From IMG/VR virus record IMGVR_UViG_3300036773_000046, positions 15,067-79,066 of that record: 64,000 nucleotides of DNA; one strand, 5' to 3'. Below the pieces are notes generated by a model. That model worked only from the letters and a program-made list of their open reading frames with translations, was not told the origin of the DNA and made no database searches. The number at the start of each line of letters is the position of its first letter. Position 1 is the stretch's first letter. This stretch comes from a virus (Duplodnaviria > Caudoviricetes). Positions 55,488 through 64,000 of the stretch are shown in pieces. A program made the translations under genes and the position numbers.

Positions 55488-55766
55488 ATGACGGAGGCAC
55501 CAGCCGAGGGTGCGGCGGCCGAGGAGTCGGGCAGGCGCGGGCGACCGCGACCGCAAGACACCATCGACCGCGACGAGCAGGTGTACCAGCTGCTCACCAA
55601 GGGCGCGCTGTCGCGCGTCGAGATCGCCGAGAAGCTCGGCATCGAACCCAAGGCGGCGTACCTGTCGCTGTTCCGGCTCAAGCGTGACGGCTACGTCAAG
55701 CGGACGCAGGGCGCTAAGGGCGATGCCAAGTCGAACACCTGGGAGGCCGTGAGCGCGTCGGACTAA
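55488..55766 (+). CDS. Winged-helix DNA-binding protein with RGRP motif
   Basis: RRGRPRP, LSRVEIAEKLGIEPKAAYLSLFRLKRDGYV. Confidence 0.75.
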   Translation: MTEAPAEGAAAEESGRRGRPRPQDTIDRDEQVYQLLTKGALSRVEIAEKLGIEPKAAYLSLFRLKRDGYVKRTQGAKGDAKSNTWEAVSASD

Positions 55767-55795
55767 GTGGTCCGGCACGAATCAAGTCAGTCGGT

Positions 55796-55840
55796 AGACC
55801 CCGGCTGCCGACGAACTAGAGTCGTTGGTAGTCGGGGTCT
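55796..55840 (+). terminator. 19-bp hairpin (3 G-U pairs), probable terminator
   Basis: AGACCCCGGCTGCCGACGA / TCGTTGGTAGTCGGGGTCT, 7-nt loop; wobble pairs form only on the plus strand. Confidence 0.6.
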
Positions 55841-55861
55841 TCGACGTTCGAGGAGCAGTGG

Positions 55862-56590
55862 ATGGCCAACGATCTTAAGCTGAAGTTGTGGTCCAGTGAT
55901 CCACGACTCAAGCGACACATCAACCACGACCCGCGTTCGCTGAACTACAAACTCGACGTGTCGAACTTGGCGCTCGTGGACGTCGAGTGGCCCATGCACA
56001 TCGCCCTGCGCGACCAGGGTCAAGTCGGCCAGTGTACGGCGGAGGCGGCCACCGAGGCGTTGGGCAGCGATCCCTTCTTCACCACTCTTGCCGGCGACGT
56101 CCAGTCACAGCTCGACACCGAAGAGTTCTCCCTGCAGTTCTACAGCAACGAGGAGACGCTCAACGGCGACGGTCCCTACCCACCCAATGACAACGGCAGC
56201 GACGGCCTTACGTCGGCGAAGGTCGCGCAGGCACGCAACTTGATTAGTGGGTACGAGCACACGTTCGCCGCCGAGGACGCGCTGAAGGGTCTACAGCTAC
56301 GACCCTTTAGCTGGGGCACGTTGTGGAAGACGGGTATGGACGACGTGGACGCGTCGACTGGTCAAGTCACGTACGCGGGGAACACCCGCGGCGGGCACGA
56401 GATGTGCGGCTACAAAGTGGACGTGTTGAACGAACACCTGTGGGTTCGCCAGTCGTGGGGCCCGTGGGGGTATCAGAACGGCGGAGTCTTTTGGATCAGC
56501 TTCACAGACTTCGAGAAGTCGTTGGCCGACCAGGGCGACGTCACGTTCTTCACGCCACTCAACCTTCCCGCGCCTACACCTTCAAGCTGA
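55862..56590 (+). CDS. Papain-like cysteine peptidase (C1 family)
   Basis: RDQGQVGQCTA, GGHEM, VRQSWGPWG. Confidence 0.8.
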   Translation: MANDLKLKLWSSDPRLKRHINHDPRSLNYKLDVSNLALVDVEWPMHIALRDQGQVGQCTAEAATEALGSDPFFTTLAGDVQSQLDTEEFSLQFYSNEETLNGDGPYPPNDNGSDGLTSAKVAQARNLISGYEHTFAAEDALKGLQLRPFSWGTLWKTGMDDVDASTGQVTYAGNTRGGHEMCGYKVDVLNEHLWVRQSWGPWGYQNGGVFWISFTDFEKSLADQGDVTFFTPLNLPAPTPSS

Positions 56591-56605
56591 AGGGAGGTGA
56601 CATTC

Positions 56606-56761
56606 ATGGGAGTGATCGCGGCGGTCTTCTTCCTCATCGCTCTGCTGGTGGGCAAGCCCGACACAGGCGGAAGTACGTTCTGGGTTATCCTAGGACTGAT
56701 CTTCCTGGCACTCGCCGTCGAGTTCGGTGGGTATGTGCGTGAGCGGTTCGTTCGCCGGTAA
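56606..56761 (+). CDS. Small two-TM membrane protein
   Basis: GGAGG RBS; MGVIAAVFFLIALLVG...FWVILGLIFLALAVEF; below the ORF-track cutoff. Confidence 0.6.
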   Translation: MGVIAAVFFLIALLVGKPDTGGSTFWVILGLIFLALAVEFGGYVRERFVRR

Positions 56762-56772
56762 GCGCACAAAGA

Positions 56773-56805
56773 TCGGCGCGCGACCCAAGTGCGGTCGCGC
56801 GCCGA
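56773..56805. terminator. 13-bp hairpin between convergent genes
   Basis: TCGGCGCGCGACC / GGTCGCGCGCCGA perfect stem. Confidence 0.7.
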
Positions 56806-56814
56806 CGTGTGTTA

Positions 56815-57132
56815 CTAGCTATCAGCCACCCAGGCCATGATTTGATCGTGCCCGGCGATCAATCGCGTGAGGGCGTCGTCGTGTGACAGCCCGTGCGCGT
56901 CTGTCCACACGTTGATCGTCTCGGCGACCATTTCGTCGAGGGTGTCGACGGTGGGTGTCATTTCCGAGTCGTCGTAGTCCAGCTCGTCGCCGGGCTCGGA
57001 GAGCATCCACCTGATCATCGCGGTGAGGGTGTGCGCCGCGTCGTTCCACTCGACGTTGCGCGTGTCTGCCCACGCGCTGATCCAATTGATCACGTGATGA
57101 TCGGCGTCGGGTACGGTGAGTGTTGCGTTCAT
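56815..57132 (-). CDS. Hypothetical protein with internal duplication (INWISAWAD / INVWTDAH)
   Basis: Strong RBS ggaaaggaaacgatc before ATG. Confidence 0.65.
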   Translation of the reverse strand: MNATLTVPDADHHVINWISAWADTRNVEWNDAAHTLTAMIRWMLSEPGDELDYDDSEMTPTVDTLDEMVAETINVWTDAHGLSHDDALTRLIAGHDQIMAWVADS

Positions 57133-58008
57133 GATCGTTTCCTTTCCTTGCTTTCCTGGACGCGACCAATCTTACCAGCGTTGACCGTGACGTGCAACGA
57201 GGCGCACGACGAGAAGATCGTTTATACGGAAATGAAAATGATGCGGCGACACGCCGTACGAAGATCAATAAACCGACTGTCGCATTTGTCGGGTTAGCCA
57301 GGTCACCCGAGAGACAAGATCTCTGGACTCCGAATACGTTCCAGCACGCAAGCTGGTCGCGCCCGCCAGCCTGCACGACGGGGCGGTCAGCCGCGATCGC
57401 TCTCGTCGATCTTCAAGCGGATTTCGGGTCACCCGTAGTTCACGAACGGCTGACGCCGTGGACGTACTAGCACGCGCGCTAGCTGGTCCGCCCTACGCCC
57501 ACGTCGGGGTCGTCGCGGGCAAATCGCACGCGACCCGCGCGTTTTGGCGGGCTACGTTGCGCGTGGCCAAAGGCGGCGTAGGGCGGCGTTGATCTCCGTC
57601 GCGCGTCGTTGGTCGCGCGACCCGCTGCACCCCGCAGAAAGAAGATCAACGAGGGTGTTATCGTTTCGTTATCGTCCTGAATCCCACTCTGCGGTGGCCG
57701 GCAATTTCTTGATCAAACCACACGGCCCAATCGCCCTAGACCCATCGTAGGACGGCGGGCCGTTTCGTCCCCCTAAAACGTTGGGCCGTAGCTGGCGATT
57801 GGCCGCCCCGTACGCGGCGACGACGGGTCACCTGCGCTAGCGTGATAGAACGTAGTCGGAAGAAGATCAAACCACGTTAGACGTGGACTGGTCGCCGCCC
57901 TGATTCTCCTTTTGATCTTGGTTGGGGGCAAAACGATCAGTTGTCTAGGTCCCTCGTTTTTCGCCCTGCGTCGCCGCGTAGATGGCTGGCGAGGGTACGC
58001 TACGCCTA

Positions 58009-58037
58009 TTTACAAGTGATGTCATCATTGCTAGGAT
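58009..58037 (+). promoter_or_regulatory. Sigma70/HrdB-type promoter upstream of the cassette array
   Basis: TTTACA-17 nt-TAGGAT with extended -10 TG. Confidence 0.65.
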
Positions 58038-58748
58038 GAACGTAGTTCATTCAAAACAAAACAGCGACCGGGACTCCGAAACCGTACGTACTCGATCAAC
58101 GCGCGAATCGCCACCCGTCCGATCTTGATGAATTCGATCAAGTGCTGGAACGTCCAACGATTTCTTGATCCAAGTGGAAATGGATCAAGATGGTAGCAAT
58201 CGAGAACTGGATCTTTGATCCTTGACGTCCACCCAACCGGTGATCATGAACGCATTTGATCTCTCCGAGAACCAGCCTGGTCGCTGAATGAATACGATCA
58301 AGAAACCACGTAGATCTTGCGCGGCTGCTTGACCCAAGATCCAGTCACTCGTCGTAGTCGTTCCCGCGATCACGATACGACGAACGACGACACGATCTTC
58401 GGCACCGGCCCTTCGACGCACGTCTTGATCAAATAACGGGTCAGCCCGCGACCTTGAACGCGGGTGGGTTGATCGACAGCCCGAAGAGCCTGAAACTTCA
58501 CCGTGCGGCTCCAAACGATCAAACGCCCTGGCGATCAGCTAGGGCGATCAACTAGAACAACTTCATAAGATCCAACAAGTTGCGTGGCGGCGCGTCTAAC
58601 GACGCGCCGACCGCGTTGCTTGCTTGATCCACAAGCAAGATCGAGGAAAGGGAGATCAACAAAATGCGTCACTACTGGTTCCACCTCTACACCATCACCA
58701 ACACCCTGCTCGTCGCCCTCTGCTACCTGCCGTAGCCAAGGAGAGAAC

Positions 58749-59024
58749 ATGATCCACTACGTCACCTCCGTTTCGATCCCTTGGGATCCAATGATCTTCG
58801 GCATCGCGCGCGACGACACGCCCGACGACCTGGGTGCGTTGATCCAAGAGCAATATCGCGATGCGTTGATCACCTGGGCCGAAGAAATGGGGCCCAACGT
58901 TTTGATCACCTGCGCGAACACCAGCTACGCGACGTGCGAACGATTCCACGAAGAGTTCGACGATCAAGCGATGACGCCCGACGACTGCTACGCGATCATC
59001 GCCGTAGCCGTCGCCGACGACTGA
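58749..59024 (+). CDS. Cassette gene, hypothetical
   Basis: RBS aaggagag; its TGA is the first 3 nt of the repeat at 59022. Confidence 0.7.
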   Translation: MIHYVTSVSIPWDPMIFGIARDDTPDDLGALIQEQYRDALITWAEEMGPNVLITCANTSYATCERFHEEFDDQAMTPDDCYAIIAVAVADD

Positions 59025-59100
59025 TCTCGTTGCGTTGCGATCAGCGTTCGCGCTGATCGCTTCGTTGCACGATCAAGTCGATCATGCAAGAGAGGAAATC

Positions 59101-59286
59101 ATGACCACCTGGCAACCCACCAACACATCGGCATCCAACGTTGACGCCGAGCTCGACGAGCTGCTCGACTCATTGGCGACCGTTCGCGTTCCCGCGCGTC
59201 GTCGCCGTACCGACGACGAAGCCGTCCGCGATCTTCGCGAGCACGGCTACGTCAACCACGTTCCCTCGCGCTGGACGCGCTGGTGA
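59101..59286 (+). CDS. Cassette gene, hypothetical
   Basis: RBS gagaggaa; stop lies 1 nt before the repeat at 59288. Confidence 0.65.
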   Translation: MTTWQPTNTSASNVDAELDELLDSLATVRVPARRRRTDDEAVRDLREHGYVNHVPSRWTRW

Positions 59287-59378
59287 CTGATCGCGTTGCG
59301 TTGCGACGACGTTCACACGTCGTCGCTTCGTTGCATGATCAGCCGATCGTGCTACACACCCCTACGAGGGAGAAGATC

Positions 59379-59741
59379 ATGTCCCACAAGATCGAGCTAG
59401 TCGACCGCACGCCCGCGTTCGTCGTCCCGGAAGACGTCGCACTCGAGCTCAAAGAGATCGCGTCGAAGCTGGACGCGAACCCACTGCAGGTCGCGCGCCT
59501 GACGTTCACCGACGCGAAAGAGATCACGTTGTTCGTCAAGCAAGCGAAGAGCTGGGCGGCCGCGAACGGCTACGTGTACGGCAAGCGGCGCAACCTGACC
59601 ACGTCCGACAAGGAGTTGACGTTCGTGCTGGTGCCAGCGGCCAAGGCCGAGGCGCGCAAGCAAGAGCTGGCCGCGAAGCGCGCGGAGCGCGCGGCGAAGG
59701 CAGCTAAGACGAACACGAGCAAGGGCAACAAGAAGAGCTGA
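59379..59741 (+). CDS. Cassette gene, hypothetical with Lys/Ala-rich tail
   Basis: gagggagaagatcATG; stop is the start of the repeat. Confidence 0.7.
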   Translation: MSHKIELVDRTPAFVVPEDVALELKEIASKLDANPLQVARLTFTDAKEITLFVKQAKSWAAANGYVYGKRRNLTTSDKELTFVLVPAAKAEARKQELAAKRAERAAKAAKTNTSKGNKKS

Positions 59742-59830
59742 TCGCGTTGCGTTCGACGGCGACCCAACGTCGCCGTCGTTCGTTGCATGATCAGACGATC
59801 AAGCAGCACACCGACGAAGGGGAAGAGATC

Positions 59831-60202
59831 ATGGGCAAGCACTCGATCATCGGCACGACGTTGGAGGTCGGGTACGACGACCTCAACGAAGAGATCGACG
59901 TCATACAGGTGGGTGCCGAGTCGTTTTACGGCGTGAAGCTGGACGTGCTGGAAGCCGACAGCTCTTCGGTGCGTTTCGGCTTGACTGGTCGCGAAGATTG
60001 CGTCATGGGCTTCCTCGTTGACTACTTCATCGGCGACGAAGATCTCGCCGTGCTGCACGTGTCGATTCACAAGCTCTTCGTCGTGAACCCAGCCGACTAC
60101 GACCCCGCGAACGCGCGACCGTACGACCCACGTCATGCCGCGCATTGCGCGCGTTGTGGCGCGCAGACTGACGAGCTTGGTCACTGCGTCAACGACTGCT
60201 GA
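59831..60202 (+). CDS. Cassette gene, hypothetical (C-terminal CxxC...HC)
   Basis: gaaggggaagagatcATG; stop is the start of the repeat. Confidence 0.7.
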   Translation: MGKHSIIGTTLEVGYDDLNEEIDVIQVGAESFYGVKLDVLEADSSSVRFGLTGREDCVMGFLVDYFIGDEDLAVLHVSIHKLFVVNPADYDPANARPYDPRHAAHCARCGAQTDELGHCVNDC

Positions 60203-60256
60203 TCGCGTTGCGTTGCGTAAGACATCGATCTTACGCTTCGTTGCACGATCACCTAG

Positions 60257-60322
60257 GCCAGCTGTGAATGAAACTTGGTAGCGCCCGAAGGGGTAAGGGG
60301 GGTTCGATTCCCCTCGCTGGCA
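60257..60322 (+). ncRNA. tRNA-like element with truncated anticodon arm
   Basis: GCCAGC/GCTGGC acceptor-like stem + A discriminator, canonical T-arm GGGGG-TTCGATT-CCCCT, D-loop-like TTGGTAG, only a 3-bp CCC-GAA-GGG mini-arm; 66 nt; no encoded CCA. Confidence 0.45.
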
Positions 60323-60362
60323 CTTGACACAACAAAGCACACAACCGAGAAGGGAAACGATC

Positions 60363-60685
60363 ATGGCAATGCTAGTGCACGCCGTTTGCGCCACGTGTGG
60401 TGGCAAGGTGCAACCCAAGAACAAGTCAGGCAAGGTGTACGTGCACTCTGGCCTGCACGCCGTCGGCGATCTTCGCAGTCGCGACGACGTCACGCGCGCC
60501 GAACCCGTTGATCACCTGATCACGGGAATCAAGATGGTCACCGACGAGGAGAGCTACTGATGAAGAGCACAGCATGCCTCGGCAAGCGCGTCAGCGCCGC
60601 GTTCGCCGCCCAGCATCCCACGTCCGTAATCTACGGCGGCGGTGGTCGCTGGTACCTGAAGCCCACGAGCAAGTTCAACCGCTGA
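60363..60685 (+). CDS. Two small cassette genes (60363-60560, 60560-60685)
   Basis: TGATG overlap; second stop is the start of the repeat at 60683. Confidence 0.6.
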
Positions 60686-60772
60686 TCGCGTTGCGTTGAG
60701 CAAGATTCTGATCTTGCTCTTCGTTGCTTGATCAGACGATCAAGTGCACGACGACGACGAAGGGAACAACCC

Positions 60773-60943
60773 ATGACACCTTCCCCCTGGCAGTGCCGAC
60801 GCTGCCTACACCCGTTCTACGAACACCGTGAAAGCAAAGAGTGGCAACTGCTGAACCCGCGGCGCAAGCGCGATCTTCACGGCTGCACACGCAAAGAGTG
60901 CGCGTGCGTCGCCGCCGACGCGTCGCACGCCACCACGCACTGA
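60773..60943 (+). CDS. Cassette gene, Cys/His-rich small protein
   Basis: CRRC.H...H, HGC...CAC; stop is the start of the repeat. Confidence 0.65.
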   Translation: MTPSPWQCRRCLHPFYEHRESKEWQLLNPRRKRDLHGCTRKECACVAADASHATTH

Positions 60944-61026
60944 TCGCGTTGCGTTGCGATGATCACATGATCATCGCTTCGTTGCTTGATCAGTCGATCA
61001 AGTTAGGAAATGAGAAGGAAGAGATC

Positions 61027-61634
61027 ATGACGCTGGAGCAGCTGCCCGTGGGCACGCGCGTTACCAACCGTGACGACGACGGCATCGTCGTGGCGCACAC
61101 GATCTTCCGTGACGCCGTGCGCATCAAGTGGGATGCGGGCTTCGAGATGCACACGCTGATCGCCGCACTCCACCCGATCATGAAGGGCTGATCGTCATGC
61201 ACCACGACAAGCACATCGTGATCATGACCACCGACTACGGCGACGGCACGCAAGACAGCGAGTCGTTCGGCCCGTTCGCCGACGTCACCGCCGCACGCGC
61301 GTTCATCGACAACATCGAGGGTGCCTTCGACGGCAACACGACGTGGTGGATCACCCGCCTGTCGAACCCTCGACCCGTCGTTGACGCGTTAGCGTTAGTC
61401 ACGCACTAGAGGGAAAAGATCATGACGCTGCAAGAGCTGATCGACATCGCGAACGAGAAGAACGTCACACCCGAGGAAGTTGAGATCTTCACCGAGGTCG
61501 ATGGGATGATGTCGTTTGCGTACGAACCCGACGTCGATGTTCGCACCGACGACCTCGGTCGCGGCGAGGGTGCCGTGACGCTGATCATCAGCGCCACCAA
61601 CGCCTACATCGTCCTGCCCGACGACGAAAGCTGA
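61027..61634 (+). CDS. Three small cassette genes (61027-61191, 61197-61409, 61422-61634)
   Basis: Purine-rich RBS upstream of 61027 and 61422, both with gatcATG starts; 61197 follows 5 nt after the previous stop; last stop is the start of the repeat. Confidence 0.65.
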
Positions 61635-61710
61635 TCGCGTTGCGTGATCATCACGAGAGATCGTGATGGTCGCGTTGCCTGATCAGATCCGACGGGCAAG
61701 AGAGAAAGGT

Positions 61711-62013
61711 ATGATCATGGGTGGTTACGCACAAGAGCTTGATCGTGTGCAGAAGCTGATCGATGACAAGATCATCGACGGCGCAACGGTCACCGTCGAG
61801 CTCGACGTGGCGTTCGGCGAGGTCGGCGGCTCACTCGACAAGGCGATCAGCGCGCTCACCGCTGACACCGCAGTGACGTCGCGCGTTCTCGTCGAGCACG
61901 GACCTGGCGGCGGTTGGCCCGTCGTCGAGTTCCACGGCACACCGGGTGATGTGCTGGTGCTGCTGCGCCGGTACTTCGTCAACGACGGCGACATGAACGA
62001 GTACTTCAGCTGA
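61711..62013 (+). CDS. Cassette gene, hypothetical
   Basis: VELDV...GPGGGWPVVEFHG motif; stop is the start of the repeat. Confidence 0.7.
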   Translation: MIMGGYAQELDRVQKLIDDKIIDGATVTVELDVAFGEVGGSLDKAISALTADTAVTSRVLVEHGPGGGWPVVEFHGTPGDVLVLLRRYFVNDGDMNEYFS

Positions 62014-62096
62014 TCGCGTTGCGTTGCCAACGGGCGTCACGCCCGTTGGCTTCGTTGCCCGATCACGGGCAGTCACTACGACCGAAGGGAAAGATC

Positions 62097-62789
62097 ATGC
62101 CTCAAAGTGTACAGCATCACGGGACGTTCGCGCAGGTGCGCGAAGGCGACTTCCTATCGACATTCGGCAACGACCCAATCACCGAGGTCGTTCGCAAGCC
62201 CGTGTGGTTGACGATCACGCGCGCGTCGGGCGAGGTGTTGCGTCGCCGCCGCACCGACCCCGTCACGTTCTACCGCGACGAACCCACCGAGGCCGAGCGC
62301 AACGACGAGACGCTGCGGTACGCGCAACGGCGAGCAGCATCGACGTTCGACGAGTTCGTGCAACGCGACTACGTGCAGAACTTGCACGAAGAGATCGACA
62401 AGCGTGCCGACTACCAGGAGATCTTCGACTGGTCAAACACCGCGTCGATGTTCAAGCGGCAGGCGTACCGCAAGCTCGGCATGGAGCTGATCTACATCGC
62501 GCAAAAGGTGCTGAAGATTGACGATCTTCGCACGGACGCCGAGTGCTTCGAGGCTCTTGCGGTGTGGTACGCGGAGGAAGTGCTTGGGAGTGGAAGCTAC
62601 AAGCAGCGCGTTTCCGACCCGCTGTCACGTTCTTCAGCGGTGTTGTCTTCGATCTTTGAAGATCTCGACCGCTGGGCGCGCGCTCAGCTGATCGAGCAGA
62701 TCAAGTGGATGGGCGAGCCGTTCACCGATCGCGCGAAGGAGATTCGCGCGAAGTTCGATGAAGAAGTCAAAAACAACACCCGACTCTGA
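62097..62789 (+). CDS. Cassette gene, hypothetical (230 aa)
   Basis: gaagggaaagatcATG; stop is the start of the repeat. Confidence 0.75.
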   Translation: MPQSVQHHGTFAQVREGDFLSTFGNDPITEVVRKPVWLTITRASGEVLRRRRTDPVTFYRDEPTEAERNDETLRYAQRRAASTFDEFVQRDYVQNLHEEIDKRADYQEIFDWSNTASMFKRQAYRKLGMELIYIAQKVLKIDDLRTDAECFEALAVWYAEEVLGSGSYKQRVSDPLSRSSAVLSSIFEDLDRWARAQLIEQIKWMGEPFTDRAKEIRAKFDEEVKNNTRL

Positions 62790-62870
62790 TCTCGTTGCGT
62801 CACCCACGGTCGTCGACCGTGGATGGCGTTGCACGATCAAGGTGGTCGTGAGGGAAAGGAAGTGGAGATC

Positions 62871-63252
62871 ATGAAGCCAGAGGCATTGATCGAGTACCTG
62901 GTTCGGCAACGCGACGAAGCGATCAACGTCGAGTTCTCGCGCTCGCTGCCCGATCACACGCGACGCAACGCGACCGAGCGCGCCGATCACCTCGAGCGTA
63001 GAATCATCGAGGCGCAGGCGCGCTACCGCGATCTCATCGAGCGGGGGTGCTGACATGAAGAGAGTCGTCAACGCGCTGATCAAGTTCTTCGCGTCTCCCG
63101 TCATCTACGTCGACCGACGCGAGGTCGCGGTGGAGGCGCACTACGAAGCCGTGGCGATGGACGCGCTCATCACGTCGTCGTTGCCCTACGTCGTCGTGGT
63201 CCAGATGATCGCGGACGAGGAACGTGACGCACTCAACGCACTCAACGACTGA
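62871..63252 (+). CDS. Two small cassette genes (62871-63053, 63055-63252)
   Basis: RBS + gatcATG; second stop is the start of the repeat. Confidence 0.65.
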
Positions 63253-63336
63253 TCTCGTTGCCTTGCGATCAAGCATCCCGCTTGATCGCCTGGCTGCGAC
63301 TGATCAGAGTGATCACGCAAATGAAGGAGGAAGATC

Positions 63337-63510
63337 ATGGGTTTCTACTATCGCAAGCGCGTACCCGTGGGCAAGCGCAAGCGCACGTGGATCAACGTCA
63401 GCAAGTCCGGACTCTCGGTGTCCCACCGTCGAGGCAATACCACGGTCAACACCCGTGGCCGCTTCTGGGTGAAGCTGGGCAAGGGCTTCGGCTATCGAGG
63501 GAAGATCTGA
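63337..63510 (+). CDS. DUF4236-like basic protein
   Basis: MGFYYRKRVPVG...INVSKSGLSVS; aaggaggaagatcATG. Confidence 0.65.
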   Translation: MGFYYRKRVPVGKRKRTWINVSKSGLSVSHRRGNTTVNTRGRFWVKLGKGFGYRGKI

Positions 63511-63785
63511 TGCGAACGCTACGCGACATGACCGAAGACGAGGAGTTCGACGCCGAGGAGGCGGAGATCGAGGGTCGCGCCATGGGCCTGCTTCGATGCT
63601 ACGTCTGCTACACGAAGCAAACCGGCAAGATCGACGAAGACTCACGTGCGGCCAGCGTGTTCCACGGCAAGGGTCCGCTGCGCGGCATCAAGCGTGAGGG
63701 ACTTACGCCGCCGCATCCCGACCCACGTTCGTTCGACGCCACGGCGACATACGAACTCGTCCCGTGCGGACACGTCATCATCTGA
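63510..63785 (+). CDS. Cassette gene, hypothetical (CxxC ... PCGH)
   Basis: TGATG overlap with the previous gene; stop is the start of the repeat at 63783. Confidence 0.65.
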   Translation: MRTLRDMTEDEEFDAEEAEIEGRAMGLLRCYVCYTKQTGKIDEDSRAASVFHGKGPLRGIKREGLTPPHPDPRSFDATATYELVPCGHVII

Positions 63786-63866
63786 TCTCGTTACGTTGCC
63801 ACCCGCCAGTCGGGTGGCTTCGTTGCACGATCAGCGTGCAGGTAGGCAAGAGAGGAAGTGGAAGCT

Positions 63867-64000
63867 ATGACCGAGAGTGCCGAAGATGCCAAGCGGCCGT
63901 ACGCCGAGCGCATCGCGAAGTTGCTCACGCGAGCGGAGGGCACCGACAACCAGCACGAGGCGGACCTCGCGAATGAGATGGCCGCACGTCTCATGGAGAA
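63867..64000 (+). CDS. DUF2786-like protein, partial
   Basis: ERIAKLLTRAEGTDNQHEA; runs off the right edge. Confidence 0.6.
   Translation, partial: MTESAEDAKRPYAERIAKLLTRAEGTDNQHEADLANEMAARLME

Follow-up and report, generated by a model that had tools for sequence, protein, structure and literature searches.

Covarying hairpins with a symmetric non-Watson-Crick core between the genes of a phage operon: candidate intercistronic processing signals

Introduction

Most phage early genes are small orphans, and, to our knowledge, little is known about how early-gene expression is organized in phages other than T7 and T4. The closest described counterparts of the elements considered here are the early sites R0.3, R0.5, R1, R1.1 and R1.3 of T7, which are hairpins of approximately 50-70 nt located between cistrons, one of them ahead of the first gene. 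In this work, we analyzed a 64,000-nt stretch of DNA from an uncultured phage (hereafter, the window; positions refer to it unless the genome is named) that corresponds to the last 64 kb of the 79,066-bp linear IMG/VR record IMGVR_UViG_3300036773_000046, which is 98% complete. The window contains an operon in which a hairpin element of approximately 52 nt occurs 12 times (E0 to E11), 11 times between gene units and once in the leader, with the same arrangement as the T7 sites. Intercistronic punctuation hairpins are already known in phages as a kind. What is particular to this array, whose element family has no Rfam match, is a symmetric non-Watson-Crick core, a start on a stop codon and a bistable right arm.

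RNase III is a homodimer whose ideal substrate is a two-fold symmetric helix of approximately 22 bp; mismatches or internal loops confine it to single-strand cuts, and the 3′ hairpins left by its cuts, as at the T7 early sites, stabilize the upstream mRNA (PMC3867540). In vivo, the enzyme prefers intergenic regions within transcripts and 5′ untranslated regions (PMC6212723). Five T7 early intergenic regions were folded here for comparison. The positions of the T7 RNase III sites, which we take to be those of Dunn and Studier (1983), fall in annotated gaps. As folded, these sites form a sequence-related family with an upper stem of 9-13 bp above a conserved internal loop. As in the elements of the window, the shared sequence surrounds the internal loop, approximately one turn below the apical loop, and neither set works as a terminator. 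The two sets differ in that they have no sequence similarity, and the host is likely an actinobacterium here. The elements of the window have a conserved lower stem and a symmetric U.G/U.U/G.U core, whereas the T7 loop is asymmetric; their hairpin opens on a stop codon, and a competing hairpin uses its right arm. Furthermore, the T7 sites are processed, whereas cleavage is only proposed for the elements described here.

Results and discussion

Copies and placement of the element

The left-arm pattern of the element has 11 matches on the + strand within 59021-63796 (nine exact, two with one mismatch), against 0.86 expected in the whole window, and the right-arm pattern has eight exact matches in the same region, against 1.2 expected by chance. 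A twelfth copy, E0, was found in the 5′ leader with a script that sought GTTGC pairs able to fold together, and it was independently recovered (23.6 bits, E-value 4e-5) by a covariance model built from E1-E11 alone. Pattern and covariance-model searches of the 79-kb record found no further copies elsewhere; a weak covariance-model match at genome positions 2142-2262 falls within an open reading frame (ORF) of 1334 aa.

All 12 copies run in the same direction as the genes (+ strand). The long type comprises E1 (59022-59075), E2 (59288-59341), E3 (59739-59793), E4 (60200-60251), E5 (60683-60734), E6 (60941-60992) and E8 (62011-62065), together with E10 (63250-63306), the most diverged copy, and E11 (63783-63833), the last one before the record ends at 64000. 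The short type comprises E0 (58570-58636, with its core at 58579-58619), E7 (61632-61685) and E9 (62787-62839). In 10 of the 11 copies that follow genes, the TGA that opens the element is the stop codon of the upstream ORF, as in E1 (ORF 58749-59024) and E3 (ORF 59379-59741). The exception is E2, where the ORF stops at 59284-59286, 4 nt upstream of the element. Similarly, the hairpin ends 25-38 nt ahead of the next start in 10 of the 11 copies; E4 is followed by a 111-nt spacer. E5 closes a two-gene unit (60363-60560 and 60560-60685) and E7 a three-gene unit. The start on a stop codon, the position before the next start and the gene-wise direction fit a role at the transcript level.

The element-bearing operon (58749-64000, + strand) holds 17 or more small ORFs, grouped into 12 units of one to three genes, and its last ORF runs off the record. 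When compared with each other, the array ORFs proved mutually unrelated, and tandem duplication of a gene together with its element was discarded on that ground. Their proteins have no significant match in Pfam, and tblastn searches against cultured phages returned no homologue. Based on its match to the consensus, the sole plausible start of the operon is probably the promoter-like site at 58009-58037 on the + strand (TTTACA, 17 nt, TAGGAT with TG). A promoter scan of 55500-64000 found two promoter-like sites, against 2.1 expected by chance; the second (59312-59339, a 9/12 match) lies inside E2 and straddles its upper stem and right arm. The scan found no -10-like sequence between a hairpin and the next start anywhere in the array, the spacers being devoid of TANNNT. 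As no promoters were found inside the array, the downstream genes would rely on read-through.

Fold, core and covariation

Read from the bottom up, the element folds into a 6-bp outer stem (UGAUCG/YGAUCA), a C.N mismatch, and the successive pairs G-C, U.G, U.U, G.U, C-G and G-C. Above this core lie a 2x2 UU/UU loop, a stem of 8-11 bp that differs in every copy, and an unconserved apical loop of 3-6 nt. The hairpin comprises 23-26 stacked positions in E1-E11 and 21 in E0, or more when the outer GAUC helix of E0 is included; in this copy, the GAUC/GAUC helix is set 4 bp further out, and there is no UU/UU loop. RNAalifold gives the same fold unguided.

A previous reading of this DNA, made from the sequence alone (the sequence-only reading), had noticed that both arms carry CGTTGC in the same orientation, so that T-T and G-T are opposed in the folded form. 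This was borne out: CGTTGC is present in 10 of 11 left arms (E11 has CGTTAC) and in 10 of 11 right arms (E10 has GGCTGC), and the oppositions were recovered by both single-sequence folding and RNAalifold, with the same structure from both. The longer arm strings given by that reading are less general, the left one (CGTTGCGTT) holding in 7 of 11 copies and the right one (TTCGTTGC) in 8 of 11. The sole part common to the copies is GUUGC opposite GUUGC, paired as G-C, U.G, U.U, G.U and C-G. As RNA, (GUUGC)2 is a two-fold symmetric non-Watson-Crick duplex with its dyad through U.U, and U.U is present in all 12 copies. Thus, of the invariant internal loop that had been described, the U.U flanked by two wobbles stands, while the adjacent TT/TT loop is exact in only 8 of the 11 copies and is TT/CT in E10. 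Over the 12 copies, there are eight exact loops, one variant and three short-type copies without the loop. Two of the latter, E7 and E9, carry U.G plus a Watson-Crick pair (G-C in E7) in place of UU/UU. These copies, at 61632 and 62787, had been described as having shortened 14-nt arms, but their helices are not shorter, with 25 stacked positions each.

The pairing is strongly supported by covariation. In the alignment, 97% of the cells are paired, 10 pairs show double changes, none of 500 shuffles reaches the observed covariation score, and sliding the partner columns drops pairing to 26-57%. In E10, a G-C pair of the lower stem has become C-G. The G.U wobble has been replaced by a Watson-Crick pair in both E10 (G-C) and E11 (A-U), while the U.U is retained in E10. 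The lower stem is thus also under selection for pairing. Of the 13 perfect hairpins of at least 9 bp in the genome, 7 fall in these elements. The lack of conservation in the apical loops fits recognition of the helix and not of the loop.

RNA, single-stranded DNA or duplex DNA

The sequence-only reading further suggested that a protein reads a distorted single-stranded DNA or RNA helix, rather than a double-stranded operator. The preference for a folded single strand agrees with the upper-stem covariation, the compensatory changes in the lower stem and the spacing of the arms. The distance between the two CGTTGC boxes varies between 32 and 36 nt. On duplex DNA, this range would rotate the boxes against each other by up to approximately 140 degrees, whereas the geometry of the fold does not change. 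The variable spacing, together with the covarying intra-strand pairs, makes a duplex operator unlikely.

Between the two single-stranded forms, the energy models favor RNA. The mean folding energy is -29.8 kcal/mol for the + strand as RNA and -24.7 kcal/mol for the - strand, a difference of 5.1 kcal/mol, whereas DNA parameters give nearly equal means (-15.5 and -15.3 kcal/mol, respectively). Under RNA parameters, the pairing probability of each of the four core pairs is 0.84-1.0. Calculated as DNA, the two lower pairs drop to 0.05-0.31 in nine copies out of 12. Across the copies, there are 31 G.U pairs and 44 mismatched oppositions, comprising 29 U.U, 8 other pyrimidine-pyrimidine and 7 C.A, with no purine-purine opposition. 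The + strand is favored because the opposite strand would carry A.A, G.A or G.G mismatches. Based on these models and on the placement of the copies, we consider it likely that the elements act in the sense-strand RNA.

An alternative hairpin of the right arm

Our analysis also identified a second predicted partner of the right arm. Together with the segment just downstream, the right arm is predicted to form a competing hairpin that is nearly isoenergetic with the main fold and whose first base is one of the three that follow the right-arm UU. Typical forms are GCAYGAUC and GAUCRUGC separated by 4-5 nt, or UUGCNYG with its complement. For example, the right arm of E2 and its downstream segment form the hairpin at 59330-59355 on the + strand. 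The equivalents on the same strand are located at 59062-59091, 59782-59807, 60721-60751, 60979-61008, 61675-61699, 62056-62071, 62827-62854, 63295-63319 and 63823-63841. E0 also carries an equivalent, and E4 has no convincing one.

When the left arm (the first 16 nt) is held single-stranded, the alternative hairpin forms in 9-10 of the 11 copies, and in five copies it is already within the unconstrained minimum-energy fold. The summed energy of the alternative hairpins is -115 kcal/mol, compared with -60 kcal/mol when the downstream part is shuffled and -95 kcal/mol when the arms are paired with the downstream parts of other copies; none of 68 such permutations reaches -115 kcal/mol. Since each arm pairs better with its own downstream segment than with those of the other copies, arm and partner covary copy by copy. 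The registers of the alternative hairpin differ between copies, and its loops range from 3 to 12 nt, a variation that argues for RNA over a duplex site. That the right arm has two partners is a second possible reason for the conserved wobbles and U.U, beside recognition by a protein: the mismatches could tune a two-state fold instead of forming a recognition surface.

Intercistronic processing as the favored reading

Inferring a function from the features of the array, as no relatives were found, we tentatively favor, at somewhat less than even probability, the reading that the elements are intercistronic processing and stabilizing signals of the T7 early-mRNA kind. One long transcript, probably starting near 58009-58037, would carry the 17 or more small genes. 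After each unit of one to three genes, from the stop codon onward, the RNA would fold into a hairpin approximately 2.2 helical turns long. A homodimeric double-stranded RNA enzyme would dock on this helix of 23-26 positions and nick its 3′ strand at the UU/UU loop or close to it. This enzyme would most likely be the RNase III of the host, since the phage encodes none: no gene for RNase III or for a protein with a double-stranded RNA-binding domain (dsRBD) was found in the phage genome. The upstream mRNA would then end in the variable 8-11 bp hairpin, which may block 3′ exonucleases. The freed right arm would refold with the downstream segment, so that the next mRNA would start 0-2 nt from a 5′ hairpin of its own, which may block 5′-end-dependent decay. 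E0 would serve the leader as site R0.3 does in T7. This scheme agrees with the general principle by which RNAs are selectively processed and stabilized (PMC10667835).

Two features of the elements are those expected of RNase III signals. The helix has the length of approximately two turns (20-22 bp) that the dimer requires (PMC3867540, PMC6212723). The copies lie between cistrons and in the leader, where such signals are placed. The UU/UU loop, the presumed target of a single-strand cut, sits 8-11 bp from the apical loop in the nine copies that have it, and the symmetric core lies 10-11 positions above the foot of the hairpin. Of the two analogies offered by the sequence-only reading, attC sites and single-cleavage RNase III sites, the latter is the better one, and the former fails, as described below.

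Other observations weigh against a processing role. Both the cleavage and the transcript are proposals, the promoter at 58009-58037 is a consensus match only, and the energy arguments for RNA over DNA are predictions. The recognition by RNase III is degenerate and does not alone account for a core that is invariant in 12 of 12 copies, for which purely thermodynamic tuning or a sequence-specific reader could be equally good explanations. Conservation is confined to the lower half of the hairpin, yet the RNase III dimer contacts both halves. If the dimer were centered on the U.U dyad, it would cut within the GUUGC of the right arm, damaging the alternative hairpin. Finally, the three short-type copies have no UU/UU loop at the proposed nick site.

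The 12 copies separate the conservation that is required (a symmetric five-base patch and the GAUC stems) from mere pairing. If the elements are processing sites, they would represent T7-style mRNA punctuation for a high-GC, probably actinobacterial, host. They would also provide a short portable module for tuning actinobacterial operons, which combines a cut site with protective hairpins for the 3′ and 5′ ends. If they are instead read by a specific protein or by the terminating ribosome, the mechanism would be new.

Alternative explanations

The alternative that survives best, although we regard it as rather unlikely, is that the RNA is not cut and works either as a two-state switch or as the site of a phage or host RNA-binding dimer that has escaped recognition. 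A ribosome stopped on the UGA of the element would cover the left arm, and the right arm would flip to the downstream hairpin; the non-Watson-Crick pairs would keep the two states close in energy or form the recognition surface of a protein. Such a device would account for the formation of the alternative hairpin in nearly all copies once the first 16 nt are held open, for the match of each arm with its downstream partner within a copy and not across copies, for the stop codon inside 10 of the 11 elements, and for the core being kept even in E0, whose outer stem differs. Nevertheless, E0 follows no ORF, and no RNA-binding domain was recognized, either as a dsRBD in the genome or as a significant Pfam match among the array proteins. 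Translational coupling through masking of the ribosome-binding site was also dropped, because the next ribosome-binding site and start codon are predicted to be about equally accessible in both folds (0.63 vs 0.61 and 0.50 vs 0.55, respectively).

Somewhat less probable still, the gene boundaries may constitute a translation-sensing relay of three RNA segments, read by an unrecognized dimeric protein on r(GUUGC)2. The terminating ribosome would unzip the left arm, and each unit would be cut, kept or passed on by a separate choice. This would amount to a novel form of post-transcriptional control over the whole operon, and the conserved arms might also serve as sites where gene units are exchanged.

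At the DNA level, it is doubtful that the elements are cassette boundaries whose conserved arms serve as crossover points for swaps of gene units between related phages. Exchange could proceed by homology, as for PeSL cassettes in T4-type phages, or it could be catalyzed by a recombinase that recognizes folded single-stranded DNA, the mode used at attC sites. The elements do bound units of one to three unrelated orphan genes. Like attC sites, they are imperfect, strand-specific hairpins with conserved ends, a variable paired center and unpaired bases, and they lie in one orientation at the 3′ ends of promoterless gene units. However, the attC ends R″ (RYYYAAC) and R′ (GTTRRRY) are complementary, whereas both arms here carry same-sense GTTGC boxes that oppose each other as U.G, U.U and G.U. 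The unpaired bases are symmetric mismatches here and extrahelical in attC, and a stable fold is predicted for RNA only, the conserved core being largely open as DNA. No tyrosine recombinase (PF00589, E-value ≤ 1, with matches in all the control genomes), serine recombinase or Y1/HUH transposase was found in the 98%-complete record, so that the analogy with attC loses both its arms and its integrase. Exchange by homology alone would require neither a hairpin nor compensatory changes, and no swap can be demonstrated, as no second genome bearing the element was found. The PeSL cassette itself is defined by a strong sigma-70-type promoter, which it conserves, with a stem that acts as a terminator (PMC2839356). 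The elements described here instead conserve a non-Watson-Crick helix, and this identity was rejected, as there is no promoter in the repeat and promoter-like sites occur at the chance level.

REP/BIME elements are also repeated extragenic palindromes located just after stop codons within operons. REP elements can protect the upstream mRNA from 3′ decay. The elements of the window differ from them in having no GTAG-type head and in being confined to one phage operon. A REP/RAYT system was likewise rejected, since the Y1 transposase domain PF01797 is absent and the centers of the copies are unrelated.

About as doubtful as cassette exchange is the proposal that the elements are leaky attenuators, in which the GC-rich upper stem followed by UUCGUU would halt a fraction of the polymerases, with expression falling along the operon. 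The sequence-only reading had noted that no U-tract follows the stems. This is correct for the full hairpin, which has one or two T in the next 8 nt in E1-E11 and three in E0, but UUCGUU does follow the upper stem when this is taken alone in the long-type copies, so that four of the six nucleotides after it are U in nine copies. Mycobacterial RNA polymerase tolerates imperfect U-tracts (PMC3993855), the stem-loops of PeSL cassettes attenuate transcription (PMC2839356), and more than half of the perfect hairpins of at least 9 bp in the genome (7 of 13) lie within the elements. Nevertheless, only two U abut the upper stem, while at least three adjacent U within a U-rich stretch of 7-9 nt are required for a canonical intrinsic terminator, and purified actinobacterial RNA polymerase passed U-less hairpins, even with NusA or NusG (PMC3993855). 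A canonical terminator was therefore rejected, and a terminator scan matched none of the elements. In addition, U runs are missing altogether from the three short-type copies, eleven serial stops without internal promoters would starve the distal genes, and the conserved lower stem and invariant U.U would be left unexplained.

Repeats of duplex DNA with a comparable distribution are known in actinophages. The stoperators of cluster A mycobacteriophages and the short inverted repeats of clusters EG and O occur as many copies in one orientation in short gaps near stops and starts, and they are concentrated among right-arm genes (PMC9283540, PMC7302621). Stoperators are known to be read by a repressor. 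These repeats are duplex sites of 13-18 bp, whereas the element described here is a covarying hairpin of 52 nt. A bipartite duplex operator, bound at its GATC and CGTTGC boxes by a regulator such as the winged-helix protein encoded at 55488-55766, is accordingly very improbable: its gene does lie 3 kb upstream, GATC is enriched 3.2-fold in the genome and approximately 9-fold in the leader, and GATC inverted repeats such as GATCAACCNNGGTTGATC of Microbacterium phages of cluster EG are found upstream of right-end genes (PMC7302621), but the box-to-box spacing varies by 4 bp, the central stems are all different yet paired, which a duplex site does not need, the lower stem shows compensatory changes, the wobbles and mismatch types are strictly strand-biased, and the alternative hairpins use different registers with loops of 3-12 nt.

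Two further candidates were rejected: a SECIS or readthrough signal, since the next ORF lies in another reading frame and the apical loops show no conservation, and an N4-type hairpin promoter, as the apex is the variable part here.

Searches for related elements

An Rfam cmscan search of 58500-64000 at E-value ≤ 1 matched no element and found no known ribozyme or other RNA. Its sole match was Xoo5 (22.5 bits, against a gathering threshold of 50 bits) on the - strand at 62967-63080, outside the elements and unrelated to them. In IMG/VR, an exact 18-mer and a 20-base gapped pattern gave two matches, both attributable to chance. The gapped pattern had at least 120 single matches in metagenomes; none of the matches listed is hairpin-like or multi-copy, and the best-looking of those listed lies inside a bacterial housekeeping gene region. 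A 22-base pattern gave nine single matches in 185,579 species genomes, and blastn searches of GenBank phages in near and distant modes gave none.

At the protein level, three array or neighboring proteins had no relative in IMG/VR, while one array protein has a single homologue, 55% identical, in a large protein database. The neighboring protein encoded at 55862-56590 has one relative with 59% identity, whose contig carries no such hairpins; the covariance model gave a 13-bit match on that contig, which is at the chance level.

Genome setting

The phage record has a G+C content of 61%. All relatives of the phage are below 30% identity; they are mostly actinophages, although the single best match is a Methanoculleus virus. 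The host is probably an actinobacterium. Both record ends cut ORFs, with a virion gene on the - strand at the left (genome 1-886) and an ORF on the + strand at the right (63867-64000), whose N-terminus we take to be DUF2786-like. The array may continue into the missing ~2% of the genome; a continuation at the left end of the record was discarded, given that this end falls inside the virion gene.

In the spacer after E4, a tRNA-like 3′ half is found at 60255-60322. It consists of a perfect T-arm (GGGGG, a GTTCGATTC-type loop and CCCCT) and an acceptor-like stem of 6-7 bp followed by A. It has no D-arm, and its anticodon-like stem is just 4 bp. Neither ARAGORN nor Rfam calls it, and its fold is no better than that of shuffled sequences (z = -0.25). 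It may have arisen from a tRNA that decayed or be an attP-type remnant; alternatively, its tRNA-like shape may serve as a processing mark at this single junction.

Between the leftward gene at 56815-57132 and the array, approximately 1.5 kb (57140-58660) have no convincing ORF. This stretch contains one DnaA-box-like sequence (TGATCCACA), and 35 GATC sites were counted in the scanned region 57140-58760, several of them in palindromes such as the one at 58163-58190 (10-bp stem). It may be a long regulatory leader or, possibly, a replication origin. GATC is the most over-represented 4-bp palindrome of the genome (885 occurrences vs 279 expected). Its density is approximately 10 per kb throughout the record and rises to 31 per kb in the leader of the operon, with the highest values at 58000-59000. 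It occurs mostly as WWGATCWW (TTGATCAA, AAGATCAA). GATC is also the outer stem of the elements and is frequent in their variable stems.

Additionally, GATCATG occurs 61 times on the two strands, compared with approximately 20 expected from the frequencies of ATG and GATC, and it precedes many real starts (e.g., 59375-59381, 59827-59833 and 61418-61424, and 57132-57138 on the - strand). Since 16S rRNA ends in GAUCACCUCCUU at its 3′ terminus, a GAUC adjoining the start codon could lengthen the Shine-Dalgarno pairing.

The longest perfect hairpin of the genome (13-bp stem, 7-nt loop) is located at 56773-56805, between convergent genes, and looks like a bidirectional terminator, though it has no clear U-tract. 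Between E0 and the first array gene, a 23-codon ORF with a Shine-Dalgarno sequence (MRHYWFHLYTITNTLLVALCYLP; 58664-58735) may encode a small hydrophobic peptide or a leader peptide.

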